Shown here: in pieces, positions 5,430 to 64,000 of the stretch
Numbering within the stretch: position 1 is the stretch's first letter
Layout of the letters: each line of letters starts with the position of its first letter
Origin: an uncultured Eubacteriales bacterium
GTDB taxonomy: Bacteria; Bacillota; Clostridia; Christensenellales; CAG-138
Assembly (NCBI GenBank): GCA_900540495.1
Contig: UQGA01000001.1
Coordinates: 170,535-234,534 of the forward strand
Length of the DNA: 64,000 nt
Reading direction: 5' to 3'
The notes under the pieces: generated by a model
Database searches by the model: none
Seen by the model: only the letters and a program-made list of their open reading frames with translations
What the model was told of the DNA's origin: nothing
Program-made: the position numbers and the translations under genes

Positions 5430-5460
5430 AAGAAATTTGACAGACAGACGGGCTGAACGA

Positions 5461-6671: not shown

Positions 6672-6673
6672 GC

Positions 6674-47945: not shown

Positions 47946-50570
47946 TTACCGCTGCACTTCTTCCATGACGAAGGCTTCGATGACGTCGCCCTCCTGCAGG
48001 TCGTTGAAATTCTCAATGCCGACGCCGCACTCGAACCCGGTCGCCACCTCGCGCACATCGTCCTTGAAGCGTTTGAGCGAAGCGATCTTGCCCTCGTGGA
48101 TGACGATGCCGTCGCGCACGACGCGCACCTGCGCGTTGCGCGTCAGCTTGCCGTCCTGCACATACGAACCGGCAATCGTCCCCACGCCGGAAACCTTGAA
48201 CGTGCTGCGCACCGCCGCGCGGCCCAGCTCCACCTCGCGGAACACGGGCTTGAACAGGCCCTTCATGGCGTTCTCCACATCCTCGATGGCGTTGTAGATG
48301 ACGCGATAGGTGCGCACATCGACGTTTTCGCGCTCGGCAGTGGTGCGCGCCGTCGCATCCGGCCGGACGTTGAAGCCGATGACGATGGCGTTGGAGGCCG
48401 AGGCGAACATGACGTCCGACCCGGTGATCGCGCCGACGCCGCCATGGATGCACTTGACGCGCACCTCATCGTTGGACAGCTTCTCCAGCGCCTGCCGCAC
48501 GGCTTCGACCGAGCCCTGCACGTCGGCCTTGATGACGATGTTGAGGTCCTTGAGCTCGCCCTCCGCCATCTGGCTGAACAGATCGTCGAGCGAAACCTTG
48601 CTGAGATTCTTGACCTGCGCCGCCTTGAGCTTGTCGCGCCGCTCTTCCACGACCTGGCGGGAGAGCTTGTCGATTTCAACAACGTTCAGAATGTCGCCCG
48701 CATCCGGCACCTCGTTGAAGCCCAACACCTCGACCGGCATGGACGGCCCGGCCTCGGCCACCACGCGTCCGCGGTCGTCCATCATGGCGCGCACACGGCC
48801 GTACGCCATGCCCGCCACGATCGTATCCCCACGCCTGAGCGTGCCGTTCTGCACGAGTACGGTGGCGATCGGGCCGCGGCCCTTGTCCAGCTTGGCCTCG
48901 ATGATGGTACCCTTGGCCAGCCGTTTCGGATTGGCCTTGAGCTCGAGCACATCCGCCTGCAGCAGCACCATCTCCAAAAGGGTGTCGAGATTCATCTGCG
49001 TCTTGGCCGATACCGGCACGCAGATCGTATCGCCTCCCCATTCCTCGCTGACGAGGCCATGCTCCGTCAGCTGCTGCTTCACGCGCTCGGGGTCCGCCTC
49101 CGGGCGATCCATCTTGTTGATCGCCACGATGATGGGCACGTTTGCCGCCTTGGCGTGGTTGATCGCCTCCACGGTCTGCGGCATGATACCGTCGTCCGCA
49201 GCGACGACCAGGATGACGATATCCGTCACCTGCGCGCCGCGCGCGCGCATGGAGGTGAAGGCCTCGTGGCCCGGCGTGTCGATGAAGGTGATCCTGCGGT
49301 TGTTGCACAGCACGGTGTAAGCGCCGATGTGCTGGGTGATGCCGCCGGCCTCGCCCTCGGTCACGCTGCTGTTACGGATCGCGTCCAGCAGCGACGTCTT
49401 GCCGTGGTCGACATGGCCCATGATCGTGACCACGGGCGGCCGCTCCACCAGCTGCGAGGGATCGTCCGCCTCGTCCGCGCTGTCGCTGAGCACCTCTTCA
49501 AAGGACTTGCTCAACCGCTGTTCCAGCTCGATGTTGTACTCCGAGGCGATGAGTTCGCACGTGTCAAAATCGATCTCCTGATTGATCGTCGCCATGATGC
49601 CGAGCAGGAACAGCTTTTTGATAATCTCAGCCGCCGGCTTCCCGATCTTCTCCGAAAGTTCCTTGACGGATATCATTTCCGTGGTGATCACCGCTTTCTC
49701 GATCACGACCGGCTCCGGGCGGTGGACGGGCTGCTGCTTGCCGCGCTTGACCTTGCGGTTGCCGAACACGCCGTCGTCCTCCCAGTTGCGCACATCCGGC
49801 CCGGTTTCCTTCTGGATCGCCTTTTTGTTCTTAGCCTTTTTGTCCGTATCGTAGCTGCGCTGGTGCGCGCTGCGATTCGGGTCAAAGTTGCTCACGCGCT
49901 CCTTGCCTGGCGTCGGCACAGCGACAAACGCCGCCGCATTGCGGCCGCCGCCCTGCTGTGCGCGCTGCTGATAGCCGCCCTGCTGTGGGCGCTGCTGGTA
50001 GCCGCCCTGCTGTGAGCGCTGCTGATAGCCGCTCTGCTGCGGGCGCTGCTGATAACCGCCCTGCTGCGGGCGCTGCTGGTAGCCGCCCTGCTGCGGGCGG
50101 CGCGCCGGTTGTGCGGCAGAGCCGTCGATCACGTGCGCCTCGTAGCCGCCGCTGCGGCGGGCGGCCGGTTTCTCGTTTGATTGCGGCGCCTCCGGCTCCT
50201 CATTAGCGCCCGGCGCTTCGACCGGCTGTTCCGGGGCAGATCCGGCTGTCGCCGCCGCTGTCCCGGCCGCTGCGGGTTCCTCCGCGACAGGAACGGTTTC
50301 CTCCTCCGGTTCGTCTACGCCGCCCACGTGTACGGCGAGATCCTTGTCGGAGGCCAGCACGGAGCGCAGGCGCTCCTGCCGCTCCCGCTCGAGGCGTTCG
50401 CGGCGCTCCTGCTCCTCCTTTTCGATCATATCCTTCTCCGCGGCTTTCACGCTGACCAGCAGCTCCGCAACGGCCGCCTGCGCGGCGGCGATGCGCTCAA
50501 GCAGTCCGCTTACATCGCCCTGCAACTGCTTTGCCGCTTCCAAATAACCCTTATTCGCCATACTGATCAT
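47946..50570 (-). CDS. infB: Translation initiation factor IF-2
   Basis: 874 aa. The GTPase domain has [17 protein letters not shown] and NKMD. The N-terminal region is Gln-rich and repetitive. An alternative start at ATG 50561 has better SD spacing. Confidence 0.96.
49947..50100 (-). repeat. About 5.7 tandem 27-nt in-frame repeats in the infB N-terminal region (GGYQQRPQQ units)
   Basis: Units begin at 49947, 49974, 50001, 50028, 50055 and 50082 (plus strand gccgccctgctgtgNgcgctgctgRta) with a few substitutions each. Confidence 0.9.
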
Positions 50571-51166: not shown

Positions 51167-52258
51167 TTACGCCTCCGTTTCCCCGGTCTCGACGCGATCC
51201 TCCTGGAAGATGGCGTCCATCGCTTCCTCGGCCTGGGTCTGGCTCTTGATGTCGATCTTCCAGCCGGTCAGTTTGGCCGCAAGGCGCGCGTTCTGCCCCT
51301 CCTTGCCGATGGCCAGCGAAAGCTGCGCATCCGGAACAATGACCTTGGCCGCCTTCTCGTCTTCATTTATATAGACCATGAGCACCTTGGCGGGGCTCAG
51401 CGCCTTGGCGATGTAGACGGCGGAATCGGAATCCCACTCGATGATGTCGATCTTCTCGTTGTGCAGTTCGTTGACGATGCGCTCCACGCGCGCGCCGCGC
51501 TGCCCCACGCAGGCGCCGACGGCATCGACCTGCGGGTCGAGCGAATGGACGGCCACCTTGGTGCGGAAACCGGCCTCGCGGGCGATGGACTTGACCTGCA
51601 CCACGCCGTTCTGAATCTCCGGAACCTCCAGCTCAAACAGGCGCTTGACAAGGCCCGGATGCGTGCGCGAAACAAGCACCTGCGGTCCCTTGTTGTCCTT
51701 GCGCACCTCAAGCACATAGACCTTGATGCGGCTGGAATTCTCATACGTTTCGCCCGGGATCATCTCGTTGGCCGTGAGCAGGCCGTCCGTGCGGCCCAGT
51801 TCCACGTAGGCGTTGCCCTTTTCCACGCGCTGCACGATGGCGGTGAGCACCTCGTTCTCCTTTTCGACGTATTCCTCGTAAATCACGCCGCGCTCGGCCT
51901 CGCGGATGCGCTGCACGACGACCTGCTTGGCCGTCTGCGCCGCGATGCGGCCAAAGTCGCGCGTCTTGATCTCCTCCTCCAGCACGTCGCCCAGTTCATA
52001 GAGCGGATTGACCTTTTTGGCGTCCGCCAGGGCAATTTCGTTGTGCGGGTTCTCCACGGTCTCCACCACCGTCTTGGAGGCAAAGATCTGGATGCCGCCC
52101 ACGAGCGGGTCCACCTCCGCACGCACGTTCGCGGAGGTACCGTAATTGCGCTTATACGCCGAGATCAACGCCGCTTCAATGGCGGAGATCAGGACTTCCT
52201 TGCTGATGCCGCGCTCCTTTTCCAAAGCATTGAGCGCCTCGATAAACTCCACATTCAT
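51167..52258 (-). CDS. nusA: Transcription termination/antitermination factor NusA
   Basis: 363 aa with an N-terminal RNAP-binding domain, an S1 domain and two KH domains ([22 protein letters not shown]). Confidence 0.97.
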
Positions 52259-52290
52259 GATCGCATTTCTCCCATTACTATTTTTATCGG

Positions 52291-52746
52291 CTAAAACCTG
52301 ATGTTCGGCCGAACCAGCGCCGTCTCCCGGCGCAGGAACCGCCGCGCCCCGCCGTCCGCCGCCGTAAGTTCAAAGGATTCAGCGTCGAACGAGCGCAGCG
52401 TACCGATCCATTCCTTTTTGCCGTCCTGCGGCGCATAGAGCCGCACGACCAGTTCCTTGCCAAGGTTGCGCGCAAAGTCGGCGTCCTTCTTGAGCGGGCG
52501 ATCCAGCCCGAGCGACGACACGCTGAGGTAGTAGTGCTGCTCGATGGGGTCCGCCTCGTCGAGGATCGGGTCGACCGCACGGCTGACGCGCTCGCAATCG
52601 TTCAGATCAACGCCCCCCTCGCGGTCAATATACAGCGTGAGAACCCAGTTGCCGTGCTCCTTCTGGAACTCCACGTCGCAAAGCGAAAAGCCCATCGCCT
52701 CCACCGTTTCACGCAGAAGCGATTCCACCAGCTCCGTCGTCTTCAA
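52291..52746 (-). CDS. rimP: Ribosome maturation factor RimP
   Basis: (M)[26 protein letters not shown]...[12 protein letters not shown] matches RimP spacing. The start is placed at TTG 52746, 4 nt after AAGGGGGGTG. An alternative ATG at 52791 has no SD. Confidence 0.8.
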
Positions 52747-52791
52747 TTCGCACCCCCCTTTGCTCCCGGGCCGGCGCAACGCGCCACCCAT

Positions 52792-52820
52792 CAAAATGAA
52801 AGAGTGGGTTTCCCCACTCT
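52792..52820 (-). promoter_or_regulatory. Terminator-like hairpin in the rimP-nusA leader (candidate attenuator)
   Basis: Minus strand AGAGTGGG-gaaa-CCCACTCT (8-bp perfect stem), followed by TTCATTTTG. It lies between the predicted promoter and the rimP start. Confidence 0.4.
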
Positions 52821-52849
52821 CTCGACGTGCTCACATACCAACAAACGAT

Positions 52850-52878
52850 AGTATAGCACAGCATCGGCGCCATTGCAA
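52850..52878 (-). promoter_or_regulatory. Sigma-A promoter of the rimP-nusA-infB operon
   Basis: Minus strand TTGCAA-17 nt-TATACT. Confidence 0.55.
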
Positions 52879-52991
52879 GCCCCTTTTCCGGCCGATTGCA
52901 ACCTTTTGTCGGCGTCGCAATCCGGAAAACCGTCCGCTGGCGTCATGTACGGCTGCGCATCCGCCTCTTCCGGGCGTCCGCAGTCGACCGG

Positions 52992-53048
52992 CAAAAATCC
53001 CCCCGCGGCACATGGCAAAACATTTCCGTTTCAACAACGCGCGGGGGG
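52992..53048 (-). terminator. Probable terminator of the accessory ABC/catabolic operon
   Basis: Minus strand CCCCCCGCG-32-nt loop-CGCGGGGGG (9 G-C pairs), followed by ATTTTTGCC, 28 nt after the permease stop. The unusually large loop lowers confidence. Confidence 0.45.
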
Positions 53049-53075
53049 ACGAAGGGGGCGGCAGGACAGCGGATG

Positions 53076-54359
53076 TTATTTTGTACCGCTGCTGATGATT
53101 TTCAACGACTTCTTCCTGTTGGACGACTGGTTCCACGCATAGAGCGCCAGCGAAGCGGCGATGACGCCATAGCTGATGAAGACGCGGAAATACTCGCCGA
53201 TCTGCGCGTCGCTAAACAGATTCAGCCCGGCCAGCGGCATGGTGAAGAACAGGATGTGGAACAGCAGCGCGCCAAGGAACACCTGCCCGATGGTAGCCTT
53301 GCGGATGGACGCGCCGCCGACAAGCAGGGCCGCCACCGAATACATGCCGACCTGCTCGTGGCTCGTATAGGTGTTTACAAGGCCCATGTTCTGCAGATAG
53401 ATGATCTGGCCCCAGGCCGCAAACACGGTGGAGATGATCGTGGCAATCACGCGGGTTCTGGCAACCTTGATACCGGCAGCCGAGGCCACCTGCATGCTGT
53501 TGCCGCAGGTGCGGATATCCTGCCCCAGCTTTGTCCTGCTGATATATACGCTGACCAGACAGACGCAAAAGATGATAAACGCCGTAAACACCGGCACCTG
53601 CACGGTGCAGGCGGCCTGCAGCAGGGGCGGGATGAACAGCAGCAGGCAATAGCCCAGCACGAGACCAGCCGTGGCAATGAGCAACCCTCTGGTCCTGCCC
53701 AACGCCTCGCCAAGGCTCTGCTTTTTGAAAAACAGCCGGCAGGCCGTCGCCCCGGCCGTCACAACCAGCAGCAACAGCATCATCCAAAGCGTGAAATCCA
53801 GAAGCGGGATCTTCAGGACATTGTCCAGCACGTATTTGATATTGTCGTTAAAATCGATCGTGTTTTTCAGGCCGACGCCGCCGCTGAGGATCAGCACGGG
53901 GTTGTCCATCGGGATGATTTTTCCAAAGAGCTTCAGAAACACCAGATCGAAAACGCCCTTGGCAAAATAGCCGATGATCATGCCGGTAATCATCTCCTGC
54001 CCGACCGTCCGGTTAAAGATTCCGCCGGCAAACAGCCCAAATACAAGCGACAGCAGGGTGGCAATCAACATGCAGATCAAGATGCCGCCGGCGCCGCCAA
54101 TACCCCAATGCGTGATGAGGATCAGGCCGATTTGGCCGGCAGCAGCGCCCAGAACGATGGAGAAGTTCAGGCCCATACCGCAAAGAACGGGCATGAGCAG
54201 CGAAAGGACCAGAACGGAGTTGCGGCAAATTCTCGAAATCGTTTCCTGCAGGACAAAGCTTGCGGATTGTCCGGAAAACGCGATGCTGAAGACGCACAGA
54301 ACCGCAAAGATGATCGTGACGATGTTTTTCTTGATAATCGCGCCCACTTTTTCGTTCAT
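53076..54359 (-). CDS. ABC transporter permease (CUT2/Bmp-type), long form
   Basis: Track ORF trimmed to ATG 54359, which overlaps the upstream stop (ATGA). 427 aa, about 10 TM segments. RTKLGQDIRTCGNSMQVASAAGIKV is the conserved cytoplasmic loop of this permease family. Confidence 0.88.
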   Translation of the reverse strand: MNEKVGAIIKKNIVTIIFAVLCVFSIAFSGQSASFVLQETISRICRNSVLVLSLLMPVLCGMGLNFSIVLGAAAGQIGLILITHWGIGGAGGILICMLIATLLSLVFGLFAGGIFNRTVGQEMITGMIIGYFAKGVFDLVFLKLFGKIIPMDNPVLILSGGVGLKNTIDFNDNIKYVLDNVLKIPLLDFTLWMMLLLLVVTAGATACRLFFKKQSLGEALGRTRGLLIATAGLVLGYCLLLFIPPLLQAACTVQVPVFTAFIIFCVCLVSVYISRTKLGQDIRTCGNSMQVASAAGIKVARTRVIATIISTVFAAWGQIIYLQNMGLVNTYTSHEQVGMYSVAALLVGGASIRKATIGQVFLGALLFHILFFTMPLAGLNLFSDAQIGEYFRVFISYGVIAASLALYAWNQSSNRKKSLKIISSGTK

Positions 54360-55396
54360 CTTGCCTTCCCTCCGTCCAGCTTCGTTAATGCGTAAAGAAT
54401 AATGCCATTGCTCACAATCGTGCGCAAAATCTCGGACAGGCTGCTGTCGGAGAGCATTTCGCTTGCTACCGGCAGAGCAATCGTCAGGATGGACTGATAC
54501 AGGATGGCGCCGACGATCACGTTCCCGATGGTCGCCCGCTTGGTCGTCGCTCCGCCGATCAGGATGGCCGATATCGCAGGGTATGCCATCATGATGGGCG
54601 CGTTGTAAAGCTGATAAAAGCCGAAGCTCTGCGAATAAACGAGAATACCGACCGCGCCCAGCACGGTGGAAAGGATGGTTCCCTGCATCCGTACCCGATC
54701 GTTGTCGATGCCGATCGCCGCGCCAAACATGGGATTGCTGCCGCTGCTGCTCATCATGATGCCCGCCTTGCTCCTCACGAAAAGCCACATCACAAGGCAT
54801 AGCAGCGCAACGAGAAGCAGCATGCCGCTCGGGATCGTAATCCCAAACACATCAAACGACCAGAGGTTGTCCAATATCTTTTCGTAGTTTTCCTCCAGCG
54901 TAATGGTGCTCCTTACGCCGCTGCCCATCGCCCAGATGATCTTGCCGTTTTTGAACGGGAGCACCATCCAGGCAATGCACATGAGTGAAATGACCGAAAA
55001 GTTCAGGTAATTGCCGACCATCATCTCGGAACCCCGCATCCGATTCAGCAGCAGGCCATAGCCATACCCGGCCGCCAGCGCCATGACGATGGCCATGAGG
55101 CAGGCTGCCAGGAAGCCGGCCATGCCGGTCATGCCGATCTCCACCGTAATCAGACCGGAGAGCAGCCCGAATACGATGCCGATGGGCAGGCCGAAGTTCA
55201 GGCCGATGCCGCTCTGGATCGCCGGCAACATGGCAAGGACAAAAATCGCATTCATCCCGATTCGCACAAGCGAATTGGACAGCAATGTCGCTACGCTCAT
55301 GCCCTGAAGCGACGCGGCAACCAGCAGGACGATCAAAAATACAATGATAATCCACTGCGACAGGCCGAGCCCGAGAATCTTGTTTTCCTTCAGCAT
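54356..55396 (-). CDS. ABC transporter permease (CUT2/Bmp-type)
   Basis: 346 aa and polytopic. The loop RSKAGIMMSSSGSNPMFGAAIGIDNDRV is equivalent to that of the partner permease. The start overlaps the ATPase stop by 7 nt. Confidence 0.88.
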   Translation of the reverse strand: MLKENKILGLGLSQWIIIVFLIVLLVAASLQGMSVATLLSNSLVRIGMNAIFVLAMLPAIQSGIGLNFGLPIGIVFGLLSGLITVEIGMTGMAGFLAACLMAIVMALAAGYGYGLLLNRMRGSEMMVGNYLNFSVISLMCIAWMVLPFKNGKIIWAMGSGVRSTITLEENYEKILDNLWSFDVFGITIPSGMLLLVALLCLVMWLFVRSKAGIMMSSSGSNPMFGAAIGIDNDRVRMQGTILSTVLGAVGILVYSQSFGFYQLYNAPIMMAYPAISAILIGGATTKRATIGNVIVGAILYQSILTIALPVASEMLSDSSLSEILRTIVSNGIILYALTKLDGGKAR

Positions 55397-57000
55397 GATT
55401 CCGCCTCCCCTTCCTCGGCCGGAAGTCTCTGTCCGCTCATCAGCAGGCCAAACTTATGGTCTGCATCATCGGGCTTCAATACGCCGACGATCTTCCCTTC
55501 CGTAACAATCGCAATCCGGTCGCAGACGGAGCGCAGCTCCGCCAGCTCGCTTGAGGTGATCACGACGGTGATCCCACGTTCCCGATTCATCTCGACGAGC
55601 GAGTCCAGTATCTTCTTCTTCGCGCCGATGTCAATCCCGCGCGTAGGCTCCGACACGAACAGGATGCGTGGCTCCATGGAAACGGCGCGCGCGATGCAGA
55701 CCTTCTGCTGGTTCCCGCCGCTCAGGCGGCGCACGAGCTGGTTTGCGCCCGTACAGCGGATATCAAAGGTCTGGATCATCTCCCTTGCAAACTTTCTTCC
55801 GCTCCTGCGGTCGTAAAAGTGCACGCCGCAAATCCTTCTGGTAAAACGATTCTTCACGCGCATGGCCGCAACGGTGATATTGGTTTCGATGGACTGATCC
55901 AGCAGCAGTCCGACGCCACGCCGATCCTCCGACACGAACATGACGCCCTTCTTCAGGGTGGCAAGCGCATCGGACACGTGCAGCTCCTCCCCGTCCAGCC
56001 TGACCACGCCCGCCGTCGGATAAAGCCCGTTGATCCCGTTGGCAATGGCCGCTTTCCCGTGGCCTGCCAGCCCCGCGAAGCCCAGTATCTCGCCTTCCCT
56101 GATGGCAAAGTTGACACGGCGGAGCGCCTCCCCCGGCATATCGACGGAAAAATCCTCAATCTCGATGATCGTTCTGCCCGTCTCCGCATGGTCATGGTCG
56201 TCGCGTCGGGTCAGCTCCACTTCACGCCCCACCATCAGCTCGGAGATGCGGACGGCGGATACTTCCGCCGTCGGGTAACAGCCGATCAACGAGCCGTCGC
56301 GCATGATCGCCACCCGATCGGAATACTTTTTGATCTCATCCAGACGGTGGCTGATAAAGATAAATGAAATGCCCTGCCTGGCGACCGCTTTGACGCAATC
56401 CAGAAACTGACGCGCTTCCTCTTCGGTCAACACGGCCGTCGGCTCGTCCAGCACGATCAGGCGAATATTCTTTTTGTCCAGTTCCCTTGCGATTTCGATG
56501 AACTGCTTGTATCCCACCGGCAGCCTTCCAACCAGCGTCGATACCGGCAGCTGCAACCCCAAACGATCAAGGGTCTGCTCCGAGTCCCGCCGCATAGCCT
56601 CCCGATCCAACAGGGAAAGGTTTCTGCCGAGCACGCGGCTCAGGGCGGTCTGCTTCAGGTTTTCGCGGTTCAGTTTGATGTTCTCGGCAAGATCGTAGCC
56701 GTCGATCAGCATGAATTCCTGATGGACCATGCCGATCCCCTGCCGCATGGCGTCAAACGGCGACTGGATGTGGACCGGTTCGCCGTCGATCAGAACCTCT
56801 CCGGTAAAACCGCCTGTGGAATGAATGACGGGCATGCCGAACAATATGTTCATCAGGGTGGATTTCCCCGCCCCGTTTTCGCCTACGAGCGCAAGGATTT
56901 CCCCCTTCCCGACGTCAATGCTGACATCCCTCAACACGGTATTTCCAAAATACTGTTTGGTAATATTCCGCATTTCCAGGATGCTCTCGCCCTGTCCCAT
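55390..57000 (-). CDS. ABC transporter ATP-binding protein with duplicated NBDs (CUT2-type)
   Basis: ATG 57000 has an AAGGAGG SD. NBD1 has Walker A GENGAGKST but a degenerate signature (LPVGYKQ). NBD2 has a degenerate Walker A (GLAGHGKAA) but a canonical LSGGNQQK. This predicts one consensus and one degenerate ATP site, as is usual for the family. Confidence 0.9.
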   Translation of the reverse strand: MGQGESILEMRNITKQYFGNTVLRDVSIDVGKGEILALVGENGAGKSTLMNILFGMPVIHSTGGFTGEVLIDGEPVHIQSPFDAMRQGIGMVHQEFMLIDGYDLAENIKLNRENLKQTALSRVLGRNLSLLDREAMRRDSEQTLDRLGLQLPVSTLVGRLPVGYKQFIEIARELDKKNIRLIVLDEPTAVLTEEEARQFLDCVKAVARQGISFIFISHRLDEIKKYSDRVAIMRDGSLIGCYPTAEVSAVRISELMVGREVELTRRDDHDHAETGRTIIEIEDFSVDMPGEALRRVNFAIREGEILGFAGLAGHGKAAIANGINGLYPTAGVVRLDGEELHVSDALATLKKGVMFVSEDRRGVGLLLDQSIETNITVAAMRVKNRFTRRICGVHFYDRRSGRKFAREMIQTFDIRCTGANQLVRRLSGGNQQKVCIARAVSMEPRILFVSEPTRGIDIGAKKKILDSLVEMNRERGITVVITSSELAELRSVCDRIAIVTEGKIVGVLKPDDADHKFGLLMSGQRLPAEEGEAESC

Positions 57001-57026
57001 TTCTACCTCCTTCTCCGCCTGCACGT

Positions 57027-58250
57027 TCAACAGAGCCCTCTGGCAGCCGCCAGTTTCCCGAGCGCCCGGCACATGCGGTCAATGGCGTCGGTCGCGCGCT
57101 TATCATCCCAGTAACATCCGATGATCACGCGCAAATGGCCGCTTCCCCTGCTTCCGTACGCCTTTCCGTCATTACAGGCAACCTTTGCTTCCCGAATCAG
57201 GTAGGATACGATCTCCGTGGAATCCCCCAGCGCCGAAACGTCGACCCAGGCCATGAATCCGCTTTCCGGCAGGCGCATGGAAACGCCGGGCACCCTGCTG
57301 AACGCCTCATAGGCGTAGCGTCTTCTGTAATCGTGTTTCCTGTTATAGGCCTCCACAAAGGAAGGGTCACGGAACGCCTCGATGGCGACCAGCTGGGAGA
57401 GCGTGTTGGTCGCGCCAAGCACGTTCACCGCGCCGCCATACAGCACATCCATAATCCTGTCGTCCGCTACGAGATAGCCGACACGAAAACCGGAGAGGCC
57501 CATGCCCTTGGAGATGGAAAACACCGTGACCGTCCGTTCCCACATGCCCGGCAGCGAAGCGAAGGTCACCATCTCCCGTCCGTCAAATATGGTGGATTCA
57601 AAGGCCTGATCGACCACGCAGACAAGATCATGTTTTTCCACAAATGCCGCCAGCTTCTCCAGATCCTCCCGGCAGAACACGGTTGTCGTGGGGTTGTTGG
57701 GGTTGGTCAGCAGGACCATTTTTGTCCTCCCGCTTACGCGAGCCTCAAACGCGTCCATGTCGAGCCGGTAGCCGGCTTCCGCATCCAGGGGAACCGGCAC
57801 CGTGACGCCGCCCAGCAGTTCGGCGTTAAGAAAATTGGAGGGATAGCTCGGGTCCGGTACGAGCACCTCGTCCCCGGCGCAGAGGAAGGGCATCATGGCG
57901 TAGAGCAGGCCGGAATCGGAGCCGGGGGTGATGATGATATTGCGCTCCGGGTCGACATGAAGCGCATTGTCCCGCTCCAGCTTTTTGGCAATCTCCTTCT
58001 TCAGCTCCGTGCTGCCGATGGGCATGGTGTAATGGGAAGGAAAGCCGTTGCGAAGATGCGCAATGGCCGCGTCCATCAGATGCTGAGGAATGGAAGGGTC
58101 CGGATAAAAGGGGTCCGCCCATCCCATCAGCGAAACGCCCTGTGCCTGCAGATCGTTGTAGGCGCTCCCGACATCGGCCTTCGTCACCGTCGAAAAAAGC
58201 CCACCCTCCAGCCTTGCAAACCGGGGATTCATCTTTTGCTTGATTTCCAT
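57027..58250 (-). CDS. Class I/II pyridoxal-phosphate-dependent aminotransferase
   Basis: Track ORF trimmed to ATG 58250. Motifs seen: ITPGSDSGL, LTNPNNPTT and the PLP-lysine motif SISKGMGLSGFRVGY. The start is uncertain because the SD is 13 nt away. Confidence 0.85.
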   Translation of the reverse strand: MEIKQKMNPRFARLEGGLFSTVTKADVGSAYNDLQAQGVSLMGWADPFYPDPSIPQHLMDAAIAHLRNGFPSHYTMPIGSTELKKEIAKKLERDNALHVDPERNIIITPGSDSGLLYAMMPFLCAGDEVLVPDPSYPSNFLNAELLGGVTVPVPLDAEAGYRLDMDAFEARVSGRTKMVLLTNPNNPTTTVFCREDLEKLAAFVEKHDLVCVVDQAFESTIFDGREMVTFASLPGMWERTVTVFSISKGMGLSGFRVGYLVADDRIMDVLYGGAVNVLGATNTLSQLVAIEAFRDPSFVEAYNRKHDYRRRYAYEAFSRVPGVSMRLPESGFMAWVDVSALGDSTEIVSYLIREAKVACNDGKAYGSRGSGHLRVIIGCYWDDKRATDAIDRMCRALGKLAAARGLC

Positions 58251-58317
58251 TTTTACTGCCCTGCTCCTGCAAAGATTGAACGGGGGAGAGAGCGGCTGCT
58301 CCCTCTCCCGTTTGTCG

Positions 58318-59625
58318 TCACCAGTTGTTGAACGTACCGCCGTCCATCCTGAGGCCCTCGGCCACGACATTGAACGCCCGCTCCACGTAGCCGGGCAGCT
58401 CGCTCCAGACCAGCGCGCCGCCCTTTACGACGAGGCTCAGGTTGCGCATGTCGGTCATCTTCTCATCGGGCTTGCCCTTTACCGCAATGATGTCGGCCTC
58501 CAGACCCTCTTTCAGCGTGCCGGTGACATCCTGCAGCCCGCACAGCTCGGCGCCGGTGGCCGTTGCCGCGCGAATGGTTTCCAACGGGCTGAAATCGCCG
58601 TGCGCATTGATCAGCTCCATCTCCAGCACCGTGGCGTTTGTTCCGCGCAGCACGGGGTCGGACGGCACCATATCCGTGCCTACGCACACCTTGACACCAT
58701 GCTTGTGCGCATAGCGGACGGCTGCGCGATGCCCCTCAACGGCGGTCGCCGCCTTTTGGAAGTTGCGCATCGGGAAGCCGTGTTTGGTCATATAATCGAT
58801 GCTGTCTTCCGAGGATACCGCCAGCGTCGGGGTATAGAACTTGCCCTTGTCCGCGATGATCCTGGCCGTTTCTTCGCTCATGGCGTAACCATGCTCTACC
58901 GAGTCCAGGCCGATCAACACAGCGTCCCGAATGGTCGCATCATCGGATAAATGGGCGCAGACCTTTTTGCCGGCCGCATGAACCGCCCAGACGACCGCCT
59001 CAATCTCCTCGTTGGTGACCTGCCGGTCGCAGAGCCCTTCGTGCGCGCCCTCGAGTCCGCCGGTAAGACCCAGTTTAATCATATCCACGCCCTTGGCGAG
59101 CTGTTTGCGCGTTTCCCGCAGAAACTCATCCCTTCCCGAGCACTCGATGGCGCCGTAATCCTCTGAGCCATGCCCACCATGCGCCATGAGCGTCCAGCCG
59201 CAGGTCAGCACGCGCGGCCCCTGCAGCATGCCGATCGACACGGCCTTGCGGATGGCGACGTCAAAATAATCTCCGCCGCCCACGTTGCGCAGCGTGGTCA
59301 CGCCGCAATCCAGCGCCTCTGCCGCGCGGCGGTACGCCTTCAGCGCCCGGAAGGCGGGGCCAAGCGGGTCCAGGCGGAATCCCGCGCCTGGCATTTGCAG
59401 ATCCAAATGGACATGCGTGTTGATCAGGCCGGGCAGAACCGTGTACGCCTTCTTCAGGTCAACAACGCGATCCTCCGGCGTGCTGGACGCCAAAACGGCT
59501 TCGTTGTGCGCCCCGACATAGACGATGCCTCTCTCCTTATTCTCATAGACAAGCATTCCGTCTTCAATCGCCGGTGCACCGGTGCCATCGACAATGCGAG
59601 CATGCGTCAGAAATGTCTTGCTCAT
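58318..59625 (-). CDS. Metal-dependent amidohydrolase (COG1228/imidazolonepropionase-like superfamily member)
   Basis: ATG 59625 follows GGAAGGAG. Motifs seen: LPGLINTHVHLD (HxH), KVCAHLSD, SVEHGY and VCVGTDMV (metal ligands). 435 aa. Confidence 0.85.
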   Translation of the reverse strand: MSKTFLTHARIVDGTGAPAIEDGMLVYENKERGIVYVGAHNEAVLASSTPEDRVVDLKKAYTVLPGLINTHVHLDLQMPGAGFRLDPLGPAFRALKAYRRAAEALDCGVTTLRNVGGGDYFDVAIRKAVSIGMLQGPRVLTCGWTLMAHGGHGSEDYGAIECSGRDEFLRETRKQLAKGVDMIKLGLTGGLEGAHEGLCDRQVTNEEIEAVVWAVHAAGKKVCAHLSDDATIRDAVLIGLDSVEHGYAMSEETARIIADKGKFYTPTLAVSSEDSIDYMTKHGFPMRNFQKAATAVEGHRAAVRYAHKHGVKVCVGTDMVPSDPVLRGTNATVLEMELINAHGDFSPLETIRAATATGAELCGLQDVTGTLKEGLEADIIAVKGKPDEKMTDMRNLSLVVKGGALVWSELPGYVERAFNVVAEGLRMDGGTFNNW

Positions 59626-59651
59626 ACTTTCTCCTTCCATTACGTCCGTCA

Positions 59652-60035
59652 TTACCCTTTGCAGGCAACGACTTCAACCTCTACCAGAATATCCTTGGGG
59701 AGTCTGGAAACCTCAACCGCCGCTCGTGCAGGCAAAACGGCGCCGTTAAAATATGTACCATAGATGCCGTTGACCGTCACAAAGTCGTCCATGTTTTTTA
59801 AAAAGACCGTCGCCTTAACAACACTTTCCATCGTGCAGTCGGCCGCTTCCAGAACCGCTTTGATGTTCTCAAAAACCTGCTTTGCCTGCTCTGAAACACC
59901 GCCGCCAACAATTTCACCCGTTTTCGGGTCTGCCGGTATCTGGCCGGAAACAAAGACCAGATCCCCGGCGCAGACGCCCTGCGAATAGGGCCCAATGGCC
60001 CTGGGGGCGTTGGCTGTTTGAATTACGCTGATCAT
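59652..60035 (-). CDS. ridA: RidA-family reactive enamine/imine deaminase
   Basis: Track ORF trimmed to ATG 60035 (SD AGGAG). APRAIGPYSQGV...VFVSGQIP...ARAAVEVSRLPKDILVEVE is the canonical YjgF/RidA pattern. Confidence 0.92.
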   Translation of the reverse strand: MISVIQTANAPRAIGPYSQGVCAGDLVFVSGQIPADPKTGEIVGGGVSEQAKQVFENIKAVLEAADCTMESVVKATVFLKNMDDFVTVNGIYGTYFNGAVLPARAAVEVSRLPKDILVEVEVVACKG

Positions 60036-60098
60036 CTTTACTCCTGTTGCTATGGCGAACCCGGCAGTCCGGGGTGTATCGCCATACGTCGTACGCAC

Positions 60099-60129
60099 GT
60101 CCCGATGCAGAGGACCTCCGCATCGGGAC
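60099..60129 (-). promoter_or_regulatory. Intercistronic stem-loop just downstream of the binding-protein gene
   Basis: Minus strand GTCCCGATGC-ggaggtcctct-GCATCGGGAC (10-bp perfect stem), 12 nt after the stop, with no U-tract. Confidence 0.5.
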
Positions 60130-60140
60130 GCATCGGTTTC

Positions 60141-61349
60141 TCAGTAGGTCATGAAGGCGCCCAAGATCATCATATAGTTCTCGAGCGTTGCGCCGGTGTT
60201 GTCCACGCCCTGATTGATGCTCACCTCCGGGCCGACAACCTCCTGCATGGTCTGCACAAACACGTCGTAGTCGAACAGCTCCCCGTTCGTATCGCCGTTG
60301 ATATAATGCACGGCGTAGGCGGCGCCCGCCTTAAGGTTGAGCACCTGCAGGGAGATGGCCCAGTTCCCCGCGCGGCCGGTCATGCCCATCTCGGCCAGTT
60401 TGGCAGAGATCTGCTCCGCGGCATAATCCGCATCGCCCTGATACTCGTCGGGAATCTCAATGCCAAGGGCGCTGGGATAGCCGATGAAGGGGGACGGATC
60501 GTTCGGCATGAGGAAGATACCGCCGTTTTCAAGCACCGTCTTGATCATCGGCTCCACCTGTGCCTGATTGGTACCGAAGAAAGCGGTGTCCTTGCCATAC
60601 TGCTCGATCATCTTCGGCACATCCTCCAGCACGAACTGCTGCGTGCCCGTGGTGCCTGCATCGGAAGTCGGGTCAGGCGTGGTCGCATCGATGAACGTAA
60701 TGCCCAGCTCCTTGGCGCGCTCTTCCATATTGTTGCGGCGCTGGAGCAGCAGCTCAACGGCCATGTGACGCGGGAAGGAGTAGTGCACGATCGTTTTTGC
60801 GCCCATCTCATAGGCTGCCTCGGCAAGCTGATAGCCCTGTTCCGCGATGTCGGTGTTGAACACGACATCCGCCGCCGCAGAGATAACGGAAATATCGTCG
60901 GACGGGGAGCCGGCCCACACCATGATGTCCGGGCGCTGTTCCTTCAGCTTGTCGATCATCGCCGCAAAACCGGCCGGCGTACCCGAAATCAGCAGCGCCT
61001 TGACCTCCGGGTCAGCCGCAACGCTCAGGATCGTGGAAAGCGCGACTTCCTGCTCGGTCGTAAAGTTGTCCGGGAAGGTCACGTGCAGAATGTGGCCGGG
61101 ATACTCCTCGGCAACCATCTCCGCCGCCCGGTACGATTCCTCGCCCTGCGTTACGGTGGACGTCATGATTGCGATCTTCCAGTTCTCGGCATCCTCGGTT
61201 CCGTCGCCATTCGCATCCTGATCAGAATCGGGATTCTGCGCATCGCCGGCGGTTGCCGTGGGATCGGAGTCCTGCTGAACATTGCTGGCCGTACAGCCAA
61301 GCGCGAGCACCATCACGAGTGCAAGCAAGAGAGCCAATACTTTTTTCAT
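60141..61349 (-). CDS. Substrate-binding lipoprotein, periplasmic-binding-protein type I fold (DUF3798-like)
   Basis: MKKVLALLLALVMVLALGC is a lipoprotein signal. An Asp/Gln-rich linker is followed by a ~340-aa PBP-like body. The DUF3798 assignment is from memory of the family (WKIAIMTSTVTQGEE..., FFGTNQAQ) and needs an HMM check. Confidence 0.75.
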   Translation of the reverse strand: MKKVLALLLALVMVLALGCTASNVQQDSDPTATAGDAQNPDSDQDANGDGTEDAENWKIAIMTSTVTQGEESYRAAEMVAEEYPGHILHVTFPDNFTTEQEVALSTILSVAADPEVKALLISGTPAGFAAMIDKLKEQRPDIMVWAGSPSDDISVISAAADVVFNTDIAEQGYQLAEAAYEMGAKTIVHYSFPRHMAVELLLQRRNNMEERAKELGITFIDATTPDPTSDAGTTGTQQFVLEDVPKMIEQYGKDTAFFGTNQAQVEPMIKTVLENGGIFLMPNDPSPFIGYPSALGIEIPDEYQGDADYAAEQISAKLAEMGMTGRAGNWAISLQVLNLKAGAAYAVHYINGDTNGELFDYDVFVQTMQEVVGPEVSINQGVDNTGATLENYMMILGAFMTY

Positions 61350-61408
61350 GTTTTCCTCCTAAAAAATATGGTTTCTTCATAACGATGCACCGTTATGAAA
61401 ACTGGAAA

Positions 61409-62089
61409 TCAAAACGCCTGGAGGCCTTCGATGGCATAGACGCGGACGGGACAGGAATCAAGCCCCTTGATGTAGAGGGGCGCAAAGGAGATGAAGAAGG
61501 TCTCCTGCCGCAGCTCCTCCAGGTTCTTGAGCACCTCCAGGAACGTGATGTTCTTCGCCATGCACACGTCGTGGAACGGCTTCACATCCTCGTTCCGGTT
61601 CTCGATCGAGACCCCGTCCCCAAACCCCACGCACTTTACCTCGTGGTCCACCATCCACTGCGCCGTTTCCCCGTTGACGAACAGCCGCCGGTCCTCCGCC
61701 GTGTTCGTCTTCTCCGTGAACGGGGGCAGCTTGTAGGGCGAGTCCAGGATCACCACGTCCCCGCGCCTTACCTTCTTCCCCAGCACCCGATCGAGCACCT
61801 CCCGCGTGATATACCCGTTGGGCGCCACGCCCTCCACCGTCGCATAGATCCCGCGGCCCAGAAAGTTCGTCAACGGCAGCGCCGCGGCGTCCGGCCAGTT
61901 GTCGTCGTGATGATAGGGACATTCGCAATGGGTCCCCAGATGGCTCGTCAGGTCCATGATCGTGTGGTAGTCCGGGATCGGTCCTCCCGTATTGAACCGG
62001 TACAGGTGACACCGCCGTGTCTCCGTCGCCGGATCCAGATATTTCGTCAGATCGATCACCCGCAGATTCCCCAGCTGATAGACACACAT
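61409..62089 (-). CDS. Cyclase-family (kynurenine formamidase/isatin hydrolase-like) metallohydrolase
   Basis: Track ORF trimmed to ATG 62089 (SD GGAGGG). VIDLTKYL...SHLGTHCECPYH corresponds to the family motif HxGTHxDxPxH, with Asp replaced by Glu. Confidence 0.8.
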   Translation of the reverse strand: MCVYQLGNLRVIDLTKYLDPATETRRCHLYRFNTGGPIPDYHTIMDLTSHLGTHCECPYHHDDNWPDAAALPLTNFLGRGIYATVEGVAPNGYITREVLDRVLGKKVRRGDVVILDSPYKLPPFTEKTNTAEDRRLFVNGETAQWMVDHEVKCVGFGDGVSIENRNEDVKPFHDVCMAKNITFLEVLKNLEELRQETFFISFAPLYIKGLDSCPVRVYAIEGLQAF

Positions 62090-62105
62090 CTTCCCTGTCC
62101 CTCCG

Positions 62106-63026
62106 TCATTTCCACTGTTTCCGTTCTTCCATCGCATGCACCAGCGCAACCGCCATTTCATGATATGGCACGGGTACGCCCGCTTCCTTTGCCGCCGCTA
62201 CCACCGAGCCGGCGATCGTATCCACTTCCGTTCGATTCCCCTGTTGCAGATCCGCATAGATCGACGTATATCCCATCCGTGCGTTCGCCAGAACCTGCTT
62301 GATCTCCTCGATCACCCGCTCGGCCTCGAAAGGTCCCACGCCCAGCGCATTCGCCGTCGCCACCGCCTCGCGGGCCAACCGCTCCATCAGGTCACAGGCA
62401 TGAGGATTCTCCAATATGAACCCCAGCGGCGCCTGCAGGATTCCCGTCAGCGTGCTGGCCGCCGAGTTCAGAAATAGTTTGCTCCAAATCTGGCGGGCCA
62501 CACCGTCTGAAATGGAACATGCAAAACCGCATGCGGTCAGCGTGTCGGCAATGGGCCTGATCCGTTCGCTGTCCCCGCCCAGCAGACCGATGCTCGTCCT
62601 GCCGCTGCCGCCGTGCCGGACATGCCCGTTGCCCAGCAGCGAACTGTTGTGTTGCGTGGTCCCGATGATGACGTGCTCGCGGTCCGCAAACTGCAGCAGC
62701 TTCGACTCGTGCCCCGCGCCGTTTTGCAGCGTCATCACATAGGTCTCCGGTCCGATCAGCCCCCGGTTCGCCTCCAGTGCCGCTATCGTATACATCGATT
62801 TCACAAATACGATGACAAGATCCATCCGATCCAGCCCTGCACACCGGGTCCCGGCTTTGGGATGAAACACCTCGTCCCTGCCCTCGTTGGAGACAACGAC
62901 ACCATCGGCACGGATTTTCTCGACTCTGCTTTGATCGACATCGATCAGAAACACGTCGTTTTGCCGGGATAAATACCCGCCAAACAACATTCCCATTGCC
63001 CCGGCGCCCAATATTGCAATTCGCAT
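62106..63026 (-). CDS. Ketopantoate reductase (PanE/ApbA)-family 2-oxoacid reductase
   Basis: MRIAILGAGAMGMLFGGYL is the Rossmann motif. Also seen: VFVKSMYT, TLQNGAGH and the C-terminal ApbA_C domain (YTSIYADLQQGNRTEVD). First gene of the operon. Confidence 0.85.
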   Translation of the reverse strand: MRIAILGAGAMGMLFGGYLSRQNDVFLIDVDQSRVEKIRADGVVVSNEGRDEVFHPKAGTRCAGLDRMDLVIVFVKSMYTIAALEANRGLIGPETYVMTLQNGAGHESKLLQFADREHVIIGTTQHNSSLLGNGHVRHGGSGRTSIGLLGGDSERIRPIADTLTACGFACSISDGVARQIWSKLFLNSAASTLTGILQAPLGFILENPHACDLMERLAREAVATANALGVGPFEAERVIEEIKQVLANARMGYTSIYADLQQGNRTEVDTIAGSVVAAAKEAGVPVPYHEMAVALVHAMEERKQWK

Positions 63027-63080
63027 ACAAGCTCTCCAACCCATCAGAATTTCGTCGTCAAGTGATTAATAATACATTCG

Positions 63081-63095
63081 ATTGCAGTAATTGCA
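63081..63095 (-). promoter_or_regulatory. Direct repeat ATTGCA-gta-ATTGCA at or just downstream of the operon -10 box (candidate operator)
   Basis: Plus strand attgcagtaattgca. The second copy abuts the -10 hexamer. The inverse heptamer ATGCAAT recurs at 63293-63299, across the regulator start. Confidence 0.3.
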
Positions 63096-63123
63096 TCATA
63101 CCAGTAAAAACTTGTTTTGTCAA
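63095..63123 (-). promoter_or_regulatory. Near-consensus sigma-A promoter of the nine-gene accessory operon
   Basis: Minus strand TTGACA-17 nt-TATGAT, with an A/T-rich UP-like tract further upstream (63124-63170). Confidence 0.6.
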
Positions 63124-63196
63124 TGCACTATTTTAATGTTTTTGAACTATTTTTTCTTCCCTGTTCTTTTTTATTCATTCGTTGCGTTTTCCTCCA

Positions 63197-63225
63197 TTGC
63201 CTTTGCGTTTGTTTTTCGATATACT
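63197..63225 (+). promoter_or_regulatory. Sigma-A promoter of the divergent YheO-like regulator gene
   Basis: Plus strand TTGCCT-17 nt-TATACT, about 60 nt upstream of ATG 63287. Confidence 0.5.
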
Positions 63226-63286
63226 ATATACTGTGATTCGCAAATGTCATTGGAACAAAACAAGGTGAAAACAGGATGGTGTTACT

Positions 63287-63970
63287 ATGAGTATGCAATT
63301 GTGCGAAACCGACAGAGCGATCCTGCAGTCCTACCGCTCCGTTGTCGACGGTCTGGCCGAATTCTGGGGACAGGGCATTGAAATCGTGCTGCACAGCCTT
63401 GAGGATTACGACAAGGCTGCCGTGAAGGTTGTCAACGGCCACTACACCGGGCGCAAAGAGGGCGCCCCGCTGACCGACCTCGCGCTGAGCATGCTGCGCC
63501 AGATTCAGCACAGCGGCGATAACCACAAAAATCTCATCTATGCCAACAAAAGCAAAAGCGGAGCTCCCATCCGCTCGGCGACCCTGCCGATTGTAGGGAA
63601 GCATGGAACGATCATCGGTCTGCTTTGCATCAATTTTTATCTGGACATTCCTCTGCACCTGTTTTTCAACGAATTGTTTGAAGTGGGCTCGGTTGAAAAC
63701 CTGCCGAACGAGACGTTCGCCAGCAGCGCCGACGAGCTGATCGAAACCACGTTGGTAAAAGCCCGTGAGGAGGTCTATGCCAACCGTAGCATCCTTTCCT
63801 CGAATCGTAACAAGGAAATCATAGCAATCCTGCACGACAGGGATATCTTCCGACTCAAGAACGCCGTATCCAAGGTTTCGGAAATGCTGGGCATTTCCCG
63901 CAATACGGTCTATCTGCATCTGCGCAATCTGCAGAACGAAAAAAAGGGAGACGGGCCTTTCTCCTCATAG
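63287..63970 (+). CDS. YheO/DauR-family transcriptional regulator (PAS-like sensor domain plus C-terminal HTH)
   Basis: 227 aa. LQSYRSVVDGLAEFWGQGIEIVLHSLEDYDKAAVKVVNGHYTGRKEGAPLTDLAL is the YheO-like PAS domain. The C-terminal KNAVSKVSEMLGISRNTVYLHLRNL is an HTH. Confidence 0.85.
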   Translation: MSMQLCETDRAILQSYRSVVDGLAEFWGQGIEIVLHSLEDYDKAAVKVVNGHYTGRKEGAPLTDLALSMLRQIQHSGDNHKNLIYANKSKSGAPIRSATLPIVGKHGTIIGLLCINFYLDIPLHLFFNELFEVGSVENLPNETFASSADELIETTLVKAREEVYANRSILSSNRNKEIIAILHDRDIFRLKNAVSKVSEMLGISRNTVYLHLRNLQNEKKGDGPFSS

Positions 63971-64000
63971 TCGTCAGTCGTCGTATTTTGCTGCGCGCCG

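Follow-up and report, generated by a model that had tools for sequence, protein, structure and literature searches.

The window, a 64,000-nucleotide stretch of contig UQGA01000001.1 from an uncultured Eubacteriales bacterium, carries at its right end nine consecutive open reading frames on the minus strand (63026 down to 53076) and a divergent plus-strand frame (63287-63970) that encodes a YheO-type regulator. Comparison of these genes with their relatives elsewhere shows that the operon is a mosaic of two separately widespread modules, and not the single unit for which it had been taken in a preliminary description of this DNA. Module A pairs an ApbA/PanE-like reductase with a cyclase of family PF04199; module B centres on an amidohydrolase and an aminotransferase, with RidA nearby; and both are accompanied here by a DUF3798 binding lipoprotein with an ATP-binding cassette (ABC) transporter of the carbohydrate uptake transporter 2 (CUT2) type. 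Our reading, to which we would give slightly less than an even chance, is that the operon is composite and serves the catabolism of an amino-acid conjugate with an amide link, dipeptide-like or N-acyl-L-amino-acid-like, and possibly with a carbohydrate-acid-like part. Pfam and NCBIfam profile searches, applied with the cutoffs of each model, upheld all ten family assignments made previously for the nine genes and their regulator.

The distributions of the two modules are separate. Module A was counted in the best 80 cyclase genome loci, of at least 520 matching stretches, using tblastn or phmmer with representative proteins and taking neighbours within 8 kb of the cyclase; crude calling of reading frames in GC-rich loci sometimes took antisense frames (for instance L001 and L092-94, in our numbering of loci), and these were not used for counts. 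Identity of the cyclase is 69% or more in every one of these 80 loci, and all 120 database matches among those listed are at least 73% identical. Its carriers within the 80 include Oscillospiraceae, Lachnospiraceae, Christensenellaceae, Spirochaetales, Treponema, Anaerolineaceae and one Acidobacteriota metagenome-assembled genome, and the closest genome is Candidatus Aphodomonas merdavium (90% identity). Lachnospiraceae bacterium M18-1 (L066) and Clostridiaceae bacterium 1XD21-29 (L088), which can be cultured, also have module A. An ApbA gene directly adjoins the cyclase on the same strand in 57 of the 72 evaluable loci, and it lies upstream in 31 loci and downstream in 30, whereas orthologues of the window's amidohydrolase occur near module A in only 2 of 80 loci and aminotransferase matches in 3 of 80; in more than 95% of loci the pair stands without any aminotransferase or amidohydrolase. 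The cyclase therefore seems functionally tied to the reductase rather than to the amidohydrolase, and the genomic comparison presents module A as a separately inherited two-gene unit that is used with many different uptake systems.

The company kept by module A across the 80 loci is varied. A LacI-family regulator is present in 39, DUF386 (YhcH/YiaL) in 29, a phosphoenolpyruvate (PEP)-mutase/isocitrate-lyase-family gene, often as a tandem pair, in 23, a small cupin in 20, an Opp-type binding protein (SBP_bac_5) in 17, the tripartite ATP-independent periplasmic (TRAP) component DctP in 16, UxaC in 10, 2-keto-3-deoxy-6-phosphogluconate (KDPG) aldolase in seven and PfkB in six, while UxaA, UxaB and GH28 genes are occasional. 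DUF386/YhcH opens the N-acetylneuraminate ring (PMC8141875) and KdgF-type cupins linearise unsaturated uronates (PMC9510102), both working on cyclic forms of 2-oxo sugar acids. Judged by their families, the LacI, DUF386, KdgF-like cupin, UxaC and TRAP neighbours point to carbohydrate-acid-like 2-oxo acids, and not to the kynurenine- or hydantoin-type substrates suggested earlier. In type II loci the pair lies among genes for KDPG aldolase, PfkB, UxaA/B/C, a GDSL esterase and GH28, and in L172 the order is GntR, a CitMHS/GntP permease, a PEP-mutase gene and a cupin, then the cyclase and ApbA. In type I loci (L001, L025-L037, L066, L090), a conserved cluster of 9-10 genes under LacI control, what usually comes after the pair is a tandem of divergent PEP-mutase/isocitrate-lyase-family genes and an Opp-type ABC system; the copies tested have methylisocitrate lyase as their best NCBIfam model, at 82-118 bits against a cutoff of 354.

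Orthologues of the module B enzymes travel together in other settings. The amidohydrolase (44-46% identity) and the aminotransferase (56-62%) co-occur in L176, L178 and L179. L176, whose record names Hungatella sp., also contains RidA, a GntP permease, class-I fumarate-hydratase-type subunits and a second pair of amidohydrolases. RidA and two additional amidohydrolases are likewise present in L179, along with M20 peptidases, a divergent YheO (40%), an Iso_dh-family dehydrogenase and a CitMHS transporter, and in L178 the two enzymes are accompanied by CodY, by peptidases of the M24, M20 and M32 families and by an Opp ABC system. The core is kept beside GntP in L176, an unannotated permease in L179 and Opp in L178, and it is therefore the enzymes that are constant and the transporter that is exchangeable. 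By this comparison the constant core of module B is the amidohydrolase and the aminotransferase, with or without RidA and YheO, recurring with four transporter types. L176 (5398-15649) and L179 (1575-15159) are widespread gut loci, the amidohydrolase of each being indexed in 85 collection blocks, and L176 has in addition two GntR-family regulators and a dihydroorotase/allantoinase-like enzyme among its amidohydrolases. From their gene content these two loci look like an uncharacterised route from a cyclic amide through an amino acid to a hydroxy-dicarboxylate.

The operon had been called an orphan, yet a 99-100% identical copy exists on two metagenome contigs, L092 (310 kb) and L093, and orthologues of its binding protein (65-73% identity) are found in related operons of differing composition in other genomes. 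L007 is the closest such operon with the same regulator type (73%); it and L008 have YheO, the binding protein, RidA, the amidohydrolase, the aminotransferase and the ABC system, without ApbA or cyclase. L009 and L010 begin with LacI, followed by ApbA, cyclase, binding protein, amidohydrolase, aminotransferase and ABC system, and are without RidA, while L014, L015 and L094 have LacI, binding protein, amidohydrolase, aminotransferase and ABC system, with ApbA and cyclase at the 3' end. The modules are thus united in three gene orders: in the window A precedes B, and RidA and YheO are present; L009 also has A before B, but with LacI; and in L014, L015 and L094, which have LacI too, B comes before A. 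L101, from the human gut, carries DUF386, LacI, an amidohydrolase (30% identical), an ABC system, a DUF3798 binding protein, ProC and ApbA (50%), and is another independent, non-orthologous union of ApbA, amidohydrolase and DUF3798 transporter. L174 combines ApbA and cyclase with an SBP_bac_3 ABC system, an MppR-like ADC-family gene, a PEP-mutase gene, an aminotransferase, a cupin and LacI, together with an M20 peptidase and a hydantoinase-like amidohydrolase. The L174 enzymes were rejected as orthologues of those in the window, the aminotransferase being 26% identical and the amidohydrolase giving no significant match, and their roles are analogous only; MppR, which acts on a 4-hydroxy-2-oxo acid, is the best model for the ADC-like protein at 136 against 380 bits, a lead only. 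It is on the three independent gene orders and the combinations in L101 and L174 that our argument for a functional link between modules A and B is founded.

The transporter offers a third line of comparative evidence. The binding protein matches PF12683 with 341.6 bits (Pfam), and the sole solved DUF3798 homologue is the unannotated structure 3qi7. The papers found on DUF3798 deal with proteomics or prediction and none assigns a ligand, in agreement with what had been said of the family before. A DUF3798 gene is followed by a fused ATPase and two permeases in 62 of 80 loci, and many such systems stand alone. In 24 of 56 DUF3798 loci of at least 8 kb, a gene of the M24, M20 or amidohydrolase-superfamily type lies no more than 7 kb away on the strand of the binding-protein gene; the figure for cyclase-anchored control loci is 2 of 45, and both of these two are module-B loci. 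The linked amide hydrolases, from three families that are not related to one another, are M24 in 12 loci, M20 in nine and the amidohydrolase superfamily in four, plus three window-type loci. Another DUF3798 system (L011, 50% identical) stands with an IlvD/EDD sugar-acid dehydratase, an M20 amidase, a PfkB-family kinase and KDPG aldolase. These neighbourhood statistics suggest that DUF3798 may be a binding-protein family for amide-linked small molecules, a testable class. The window's system resembles the CUT2 sugar importers (Rbs, Xyl, Ggu) in its fused double ATPase and two BPD_transp_2 permeases, and the best matches of its ATPase are of the XylG/GguA/RbsA type, that is, xylose, ribose and multiple-sugar ATPases; it differs from them in that the binding protein belongs to DUF3798 instead of being a characterised sugar binder, in reaching no sugar-specific equivalog cutoff, and in that DUF3798 genes neighbour amide hydrolases and not sugar kinases or isomerases.

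From gene content, modular structure, co-occurrence statistics and family memberships we infer the catalytic steps, their order and the class of substrate as follows. The DUF3798 lipoprotein and the CUT2-type ABC system would import the conjugate, and the COG1228 amidohydrolase would cleave its amide bond and free an L-alpha-amino acid. The class-I aminotransferase would convert the freed amino acid to a 2-oxo acid, with RidA removing reactive enamine or imine by-products. The cyclase might then hydrolyse or ring-open a cyclic form or derivative of the acid (a lactone, lactam or similar), and the ApbA-type enzyme would reduce the 2-oxo group to give a D-2-hydroxy acid. The YheO-type regulator is envisaged as controlling a single promoter and sensing the substrate or an intermediate. 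With low confidence we suggest that the intermediates are 4-hydroxy-2-oxo acids, ketopantoate-like or 2-keto-3-deoxy-sugar-acid-like, which cyclise readily; ketopantoate is the canonical ApbA substrate. The general logic of import, hydrolysis, transamination and reduction, with RidA as scavenger, thus survives from the preliminary description, and the module-B enzymes do co-travel, but the unit to which it was applied is a mosaic. The cyclase and the amidohydrolase were there seen as two hydrolases that together release the amino acid, an arrangement at odds with the coupling of cyclase to ApbA; we have placed the cyclase downstream because of that coupling and because L007 dispenses with both genes. 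In agreement with the preliminary description, the literature yielded no characterised pathway with this gene set, including when cyclase was combined with 2-dehydropantoate 2-reductase or YheO with RidA.

The family memberships agree with the chemistry proposed to differing degrees. Best matches of the amidohydrolase (E 4e-44 to 4e-26) are its nearest solved relatives, the L-Arg carboxypeptidase Cc2672 (3mtw), Xaa-Pro dipeptidases/prolidases and ochratoxinase-type amidases, and an HxH-type metal-binding motif is present. The substrates of Cc2672, the COG1228 prolidases and the ochratoxinase-type amidases are L-amino acids whose carboxylate is free and which carry an acyl or aminoacyl group that the enzyme splits off, and it is this carboxypeptidase-type action of the nearest characterised relatives, releasing a C-terminal L-amino acid, that supports amide cleavage. 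Cc2672, an L-Arg/L-Lys carboxypeptidase, the Sgx9260-type prolidases and the ochratoxinase-type amidases are likenesses of sequence, while the COG1228 Xaa-Pro dipeptidases as an equivalog (NF051886) are not reached, at 216 bits against a cutoff of 500. The aminotransferase scores 196 bits against PF00155 and has the SISKGMGLSGFRVGY motif with the PLP (pyridoxal 5'-phosphate)-binding lysine; its best NCBIfam model is GntC, a gamma-hydroxy-arginine cyclodehydratase, at 217.6 bits against a cutoff of 415, again a lead only. RidA scores 173 bits against TIGR00004 (cutoff 106) and retains the conserved Arg in the ...PARAAVEV... segment.

For module A, the ApbA protein exceeds the subfamily model TIGR00745 (apbA_panE; 237 bits against a cutoff of 141) and falls below all PanE equivalog models (for instance NF005092, 168 against 500). 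Its nearest structures, to which it is about 30% identical, are the Thermococcus ketopantoate reductase 5hws (129 bits) and the Enterococcus D-mandelate dehydrogenase 3wfi (115 bits); it shares the two-domain ApbA fold and conserved Lys, Glu and Asn of PanE and the D-mandelate/D-2-hydroxyacid dehydrogenases, and these catalytic positions align with 5hws. It is unlike PanE in that modest identity, in having no pan-gene context and in being paired with a cyclase-family gene, and we know of no described PanE locus with such a pairing. The cyclase scores 52.4 bits against PF04199 (gathering score 23.1) and carries the motif H50-LGT-H54-C-E56-CPY-H60-H61 (HLGTHCECPYHH), in which the Asp of the family's HxGTHxDxPxH is replaced by Glu and extra Cys residues flank it; H50, H54, E56, H60 and H61 are invariant in 22 of 22 aligned orthologues, an alignment with a mean column identity of 78%. 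The AlphaFold model of the cyclase has an overall predicted local distance difference test (pLDDT) score of 76, is poor over residues 26-61 and falls below 50 across the catalytic motif, and we therefore draw no active-site conclusions from it. All Foldseek matches at E <= 0.001 are PF04199 members, with template modelling (TM) scores of 0.49-0.62 and 13-21% identity.

The PF04199 enzymes with known activities are more diverse than the aryl-amide hydrolases, kynurenine formamidase and isatin hydrolase, by which the family was initially represented. It includes a metal-dependent esterase and a trans-dienelactone hydrolase, and variant motifs occur in active members (PMC5341072). The phosphotriesterase 8f9x is also among the structural relatives found by Foldseek. 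A further member, the Mn-dependent dihydrophloroglucinol cyclohydrolase DPGC, is a ring-opening enzyme that cleaves a C-C bond; it is found in gut and soil anaerobes, gut Clostridia among them, and its gene lies beside a reductase gene (PMC10470551). The phloroglucinol cluster of Clostridium scatologenes, with phloroglucinol reductase (PGR) and DPGC, therefore shows that the family can act in catabolic pairs with a reductase (PMC10470551). The reductase of that cluster is a short-chain dehydrogenase/reductase, whereas that of the window is an ApbA protein, and its TfD and TAL genes are absent here; the neighbours of module A are LacI, DUF386, PEP-mutase and transporter genes. Identity with DPGC was rejected since its partner genes were not seen in the loci examined. 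Isatin hydrolase and kynurenine formamidase (4m8d, 4cob) resemble the window's cyclase in fold (TM 0.5-0.62) and in the His-rich metal motif region, and differ in sequence (13-21% identity) and in motif, that of the window's cyclase being HxGTHxExPxH with extra Cys. Isatin hydrolase converts a cyclic alpha-keto amide to a 2-oxo acid, the type of product that an ApbA enzyme could reduce. That PF04199 members act on the alpha-keto-lactam isatin, on esters and on dienelactone, and that ApbA-family structures include 2-oxo-acid reductases, supports the last two steps of the model. Kynurenine formamidase, GntC, Xaa-Pro dipeptidase and PanE were all rejected as equivalog identities, each lying below its NCBIfam cutoff.

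Several observations weigh against the composite operon for an amide-linked conjugate. The Asp to Glu change and the flanking Cys residues of the cyclase motif fall where the model is unreliable, so that hydrolase chemistry is an assumption. In most of its loci module A is accompanied by genes for LacI, DUF386, cupins, PEP-mutase, hexuronate metabolism and Opp or TRAP transport, with no aminotransferase among them, and the 2-oxo acid of module A therefore need not derive from an amino acid; module A could here process the acyl half of the conjugate, or be merely co-regulated. CUT2 ABC systems and LacI regulators usually handle sugars and are a poor fit to a plain dipeptide. Co-transcription is deduced from spacing alone, and the structured 105-nt spacer after the binding-protein gene could divide expression.

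These points leave room for other arrangements of the same enzymes. The order originally proposed puts the cyclase first, ring-opening or deformylating a lactam or N-formyl compound before the amidohydrolase and aminotransferase act, with transamination and the PanE-like reduction closing the pathway as a fermentative redox sink. Kynurenine formamidase and isatin hydrolase are PF04199 members, and the extra ring-opening amidohydrolases of L176 (dihydroorotase/allantoinase-like) and L174 (hydantoinase-like, with M20) mean that a logic leading from a cyclic amide, by way of an N-acyl amino acid, to the amino acid exists in this family of neighbourhoods. We nevertheless consider this order quite unlikely, given that the cyclase lies beside ApbA in 57 of 72 loci and near the amidohydrolase in two of 80, that L007 has the orthologous binding protein, amidohydrolase and aminotransferase without a cyclase, and that the cyclase scores 35.4 bits against the arylformamidase/kynurenine formamidase equivalog TIGR03035 where 223 are required. 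The substrate might instead be split between the modules, as an N-aldonoyl- or N-(2-hydroxyacyl)-amino acid of the kind of pantothenate or the N-lactoyl amino acids, the amino-acid half passing to the aminotransferase and RidA and the acid half to module A, where the cyclase would hydrolyse a lactone or ester and ApbA would interconvert 2-hydroxy and 2-oxo forms. Pantoate, the canonical ApbA product, is the acyl half of pantothenate; the carbohydrate-acid-like company of module A (LacI, DUF386, cupin, TRAP and UxaC, at the frequencies given above), the CitMHS/GntP permeases of L172, the CUT2-type transporter, the LacI regulators of the A+B variants L009 and L094, and the sugar-acid dehydratase, M20, PfkB and KDPG aldolase genes beside the DUF3798 system of L011 would all suit such a molecule. 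However, the genes are linked with no natural compound of such a kind, the module-B-core loci L176, L178 and L179 do without module A, and the pair in L174 sits with an amino-acid-type SBP_bac_3 transporter; we regard a split substrate as unlikely, though not strikingly so.

A lack of any pathway link, with module A a self-contained carbohydrate-acid unit merely co-transcribed with an unrelated amino-acid-conjugate operon, seems to us very unlikely. Such a unit could, for instance, be the equivalent, without homology, of the isomerase-reductase pairs KduI/KduD or DhuI/DhuD that act on 4-deoxy-5-hexosulose uronate, and the known pairs for that step are themselves non-homologous and modular (PMC12838403). 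The gene content of the type II loci fits this, as does a GC content of 0.54-0.59 in this region against 0.60-0.70 elsewhere in the window, which suggests acquired DNA; but PF04199 has no known isomerase activity, and three independent A+B orders with the combinations in L101 and L174 are hard to ascribe to accident. We consider it highly improbable that the pair serves to salvage or break down compounds like pantothenate, with ApbA as a genuine ketopantoate reductase and the cyclase hydrolysing (keto)pantolactone. TIGR00745 is passed and the catalytic Lys, Glu and Asn align with 5hws, and the PEP-mutase-family genes of 23 of the 80 loci belong to the same superfamily as PanB; yet TIGR00745 is a subfamily model only and every PanE equivalog fails, 3wfi scores about as well as 5hws, panB, panC and panD are absent from the operon and its flanks, and a class-I aminotransferase is not of the type known for beta-alanine.

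Returning to the composite operon, a broader proposal, which we think possible but somewhat doubtful, is that the ApbA-cyclase pair forms the core of an undescribed catabolic route in several hundred gut and anaerobic-digester species of Bacillota, Spirochaetota and Anaerolineae, in which the PF04199 enzyme would open or hydrolyse a cyclic 2-oxo-acid derivative and the PanE-like enzyme would reduce the product, with DUF3798 binding amide-linked molecules and the window representing a feeder branch. If so, the route would often involve PEP-mutase-family, small cupin and DUF386 genes, and its cyclic substrate might be, for example, a 4-hydroxy-2-oxo-acid lactone. All the proteins belong to known families and the design, a binding-protein-dependent importer with catabolic enzymes and a local regulator, is conventional. 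The interest lies in a highly conserved cyclase (at least 69% across phyla) that has a PanE-like reductase as its partner in the majority of the loci examined, in the set of amidohydrolase, aminotransferase, RidA and YheO conserved in Hungatella and relatives, and in a first hint from comparison as to which ligands DUF3798 proteins may bind, amide-bonded small molecules. Solving the cyclase, DUF3798 or module B would annotate hundreds to thousands of gut-metagenome genes, and the answer could reveal a diet- or host-derived conjugate that the carriers harvest.

The regulator has the PAS_6 and HTH_22 domains of the YheO/DauR architecture (Pfam), and its orthologues adjoin module-B genes in L007 (47% identity) and L179 (40%). 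DauR controls the dauBA D-arginine operon of Pseudomonas aeruginosa, where catabolism proceeds through imino and keto acids. The window's regulator shares its domain architecture, but the window is without dauA or dauB homologues, and other copies of its enzyme set are under LacI regulators. ATTGCA-containing repeats (gATTGCAgtaATTGCAtcat) at 63085-63107, which overlap the -10 box of the operon promoter, are a candidate operator on sequence grounds. An imperfect inverted partner at 63282-63300, with 19-nt arms that are 74% complementary, overlaps the regulator's start codon. Comparison of the inverted and direct repeats of 63027-63300 with the regulatory regions of L007 and L179 gave no convincing common motif.

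The layout of the operon is summarised in Table 1, in which reading frames are taken from a six-frame list and the likeliest starts were chosen for spacing. With these starts the intergenic distances, 5' to 3', are 16, 59, 105, -1, 67, 26, -7 and -4 nt, the ridA stop codon overlapping the amidohydrolase start (TAATG), and most of the genes are preceded by GGAGG-like ribosome-binding sites. The spacing is less even than reported earlier, and the 105-nt spacer between the binding-protein gene and ridA contains two hairpins.

Table 1. Genes and putative expression signals of the operon, with coordinates in the window.
Feature	Coordinates	Strand	Basis
YheO-family regulator, PAS_6 + HTH_22, 227 aa	63287..63970	+	Pfam PF08348 1.3e-32, PF13309 3.1e-15
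Sigma-70-type promoter-like site: TTGACA, 17 nt, TG-extended TATGAT	63095..63123	-	consensus match only, 11/12
Module A gene 1: ApbA/PanE-family NAD(P)H 2-oxo-acid reductase, 306 aa	62106..63026	-	ApbA + ApbA_C, TIGR00745
Module A gene 2: cyclase-family PF04199 metal-dependent enzyme, 226 aa, variant motif HLGTHCECPYHH	61409..62089	-	
DUF3798 solute-binding lipoprotein, 402 aa, signal peptide, lipobox LALGC	60141..61349	-	PF12683 4.5e-102
Two very stable hairpins, spacer between binding-protein gene and ridA	60051..60135 (60135-60094, 60086-60051)	-	folding energy
RidA (Rid-family enamine/imine deaminase), 127 aa	59652..60035	-	TIGR00004
Module B enzyme 1: COG1228-type amidohydrolase (Amidohydro_1/3), 444 aa	58318..59652	-	
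Module B enzyme 2: class-I PLP aminotransferase (Aminotran_1_2), 407 aa	57027..58250	-	
CUT2-type ABC ATPase, two fused nucleotide-binding domains, 536 aa	55390..57000	-	
ABC permease 1 (BPD_transp_2), 346 aa	54356..55396	-	
ABC permease 2 (BPD_transp_2), ~427 aa, MNEKVGAII start	53076..54359	-	
Terminator-like GC-rich hairpin CCCCCCGCG...CGCGGGGGG, then AUUUUUG	52988..53050	-	26 nt past last stop codon

Both the near-consensus promoter and the terminator-like hairpin of the preliminary description were found again. The former lies about 70 nt upstream of the ApbA ATG at 63026; the latter has a folding energy of -32.6 kcal/mol (z = -1.3), which is not exceptional at its GC content. Spacing, promoter-like site and hairpin are consistent with one transcript from one promoter to one terminator. 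The two spacer hairpins have a minimum free energy of -51.4 kcal/mol (z = -4.6; none of 200 shuffled sequences folds so stably); one of them has a long, nearly perfect stem, and there is no U-tract. They are probably an RNA-stability or processing element that raises the output of binding protein. An Rfam scan of 52600-64000 (E <= 0.1) returned no riboswitch or leader family, its sole match being a sub-threshold small RNA inside a coding region.

Downstream of the terminator-like hairpin lies a rimP-nusA-infB operon. The GC content is 0.54-0.59 over the operon and regulator (52001-64000) and 0.60-0.70 at positions 1-52000, consistent with horizontally acquired DNA inserted upstream of rimP-nusA-infB. 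Beyond the window's right end, L092 carries at 4947-6976, convergent with the regulator, genes for the alpha and beta subunits of a 2-oxo-acid dehydrogenase E1, and further on a GFO/IDH/MocA oxidoreductase, a phosphomannose-isomerase-like protein and a HAD hydrolase; a connection of this dehydrogenase with the operon's 2-oxo acid is possible. In the window itself, infB (47946-50570, minus strand) encodes an IF-2 whose N-terminal region contains about six near-identical Q/G/Y-rich nonapeptides (GGYQQRPQQ).

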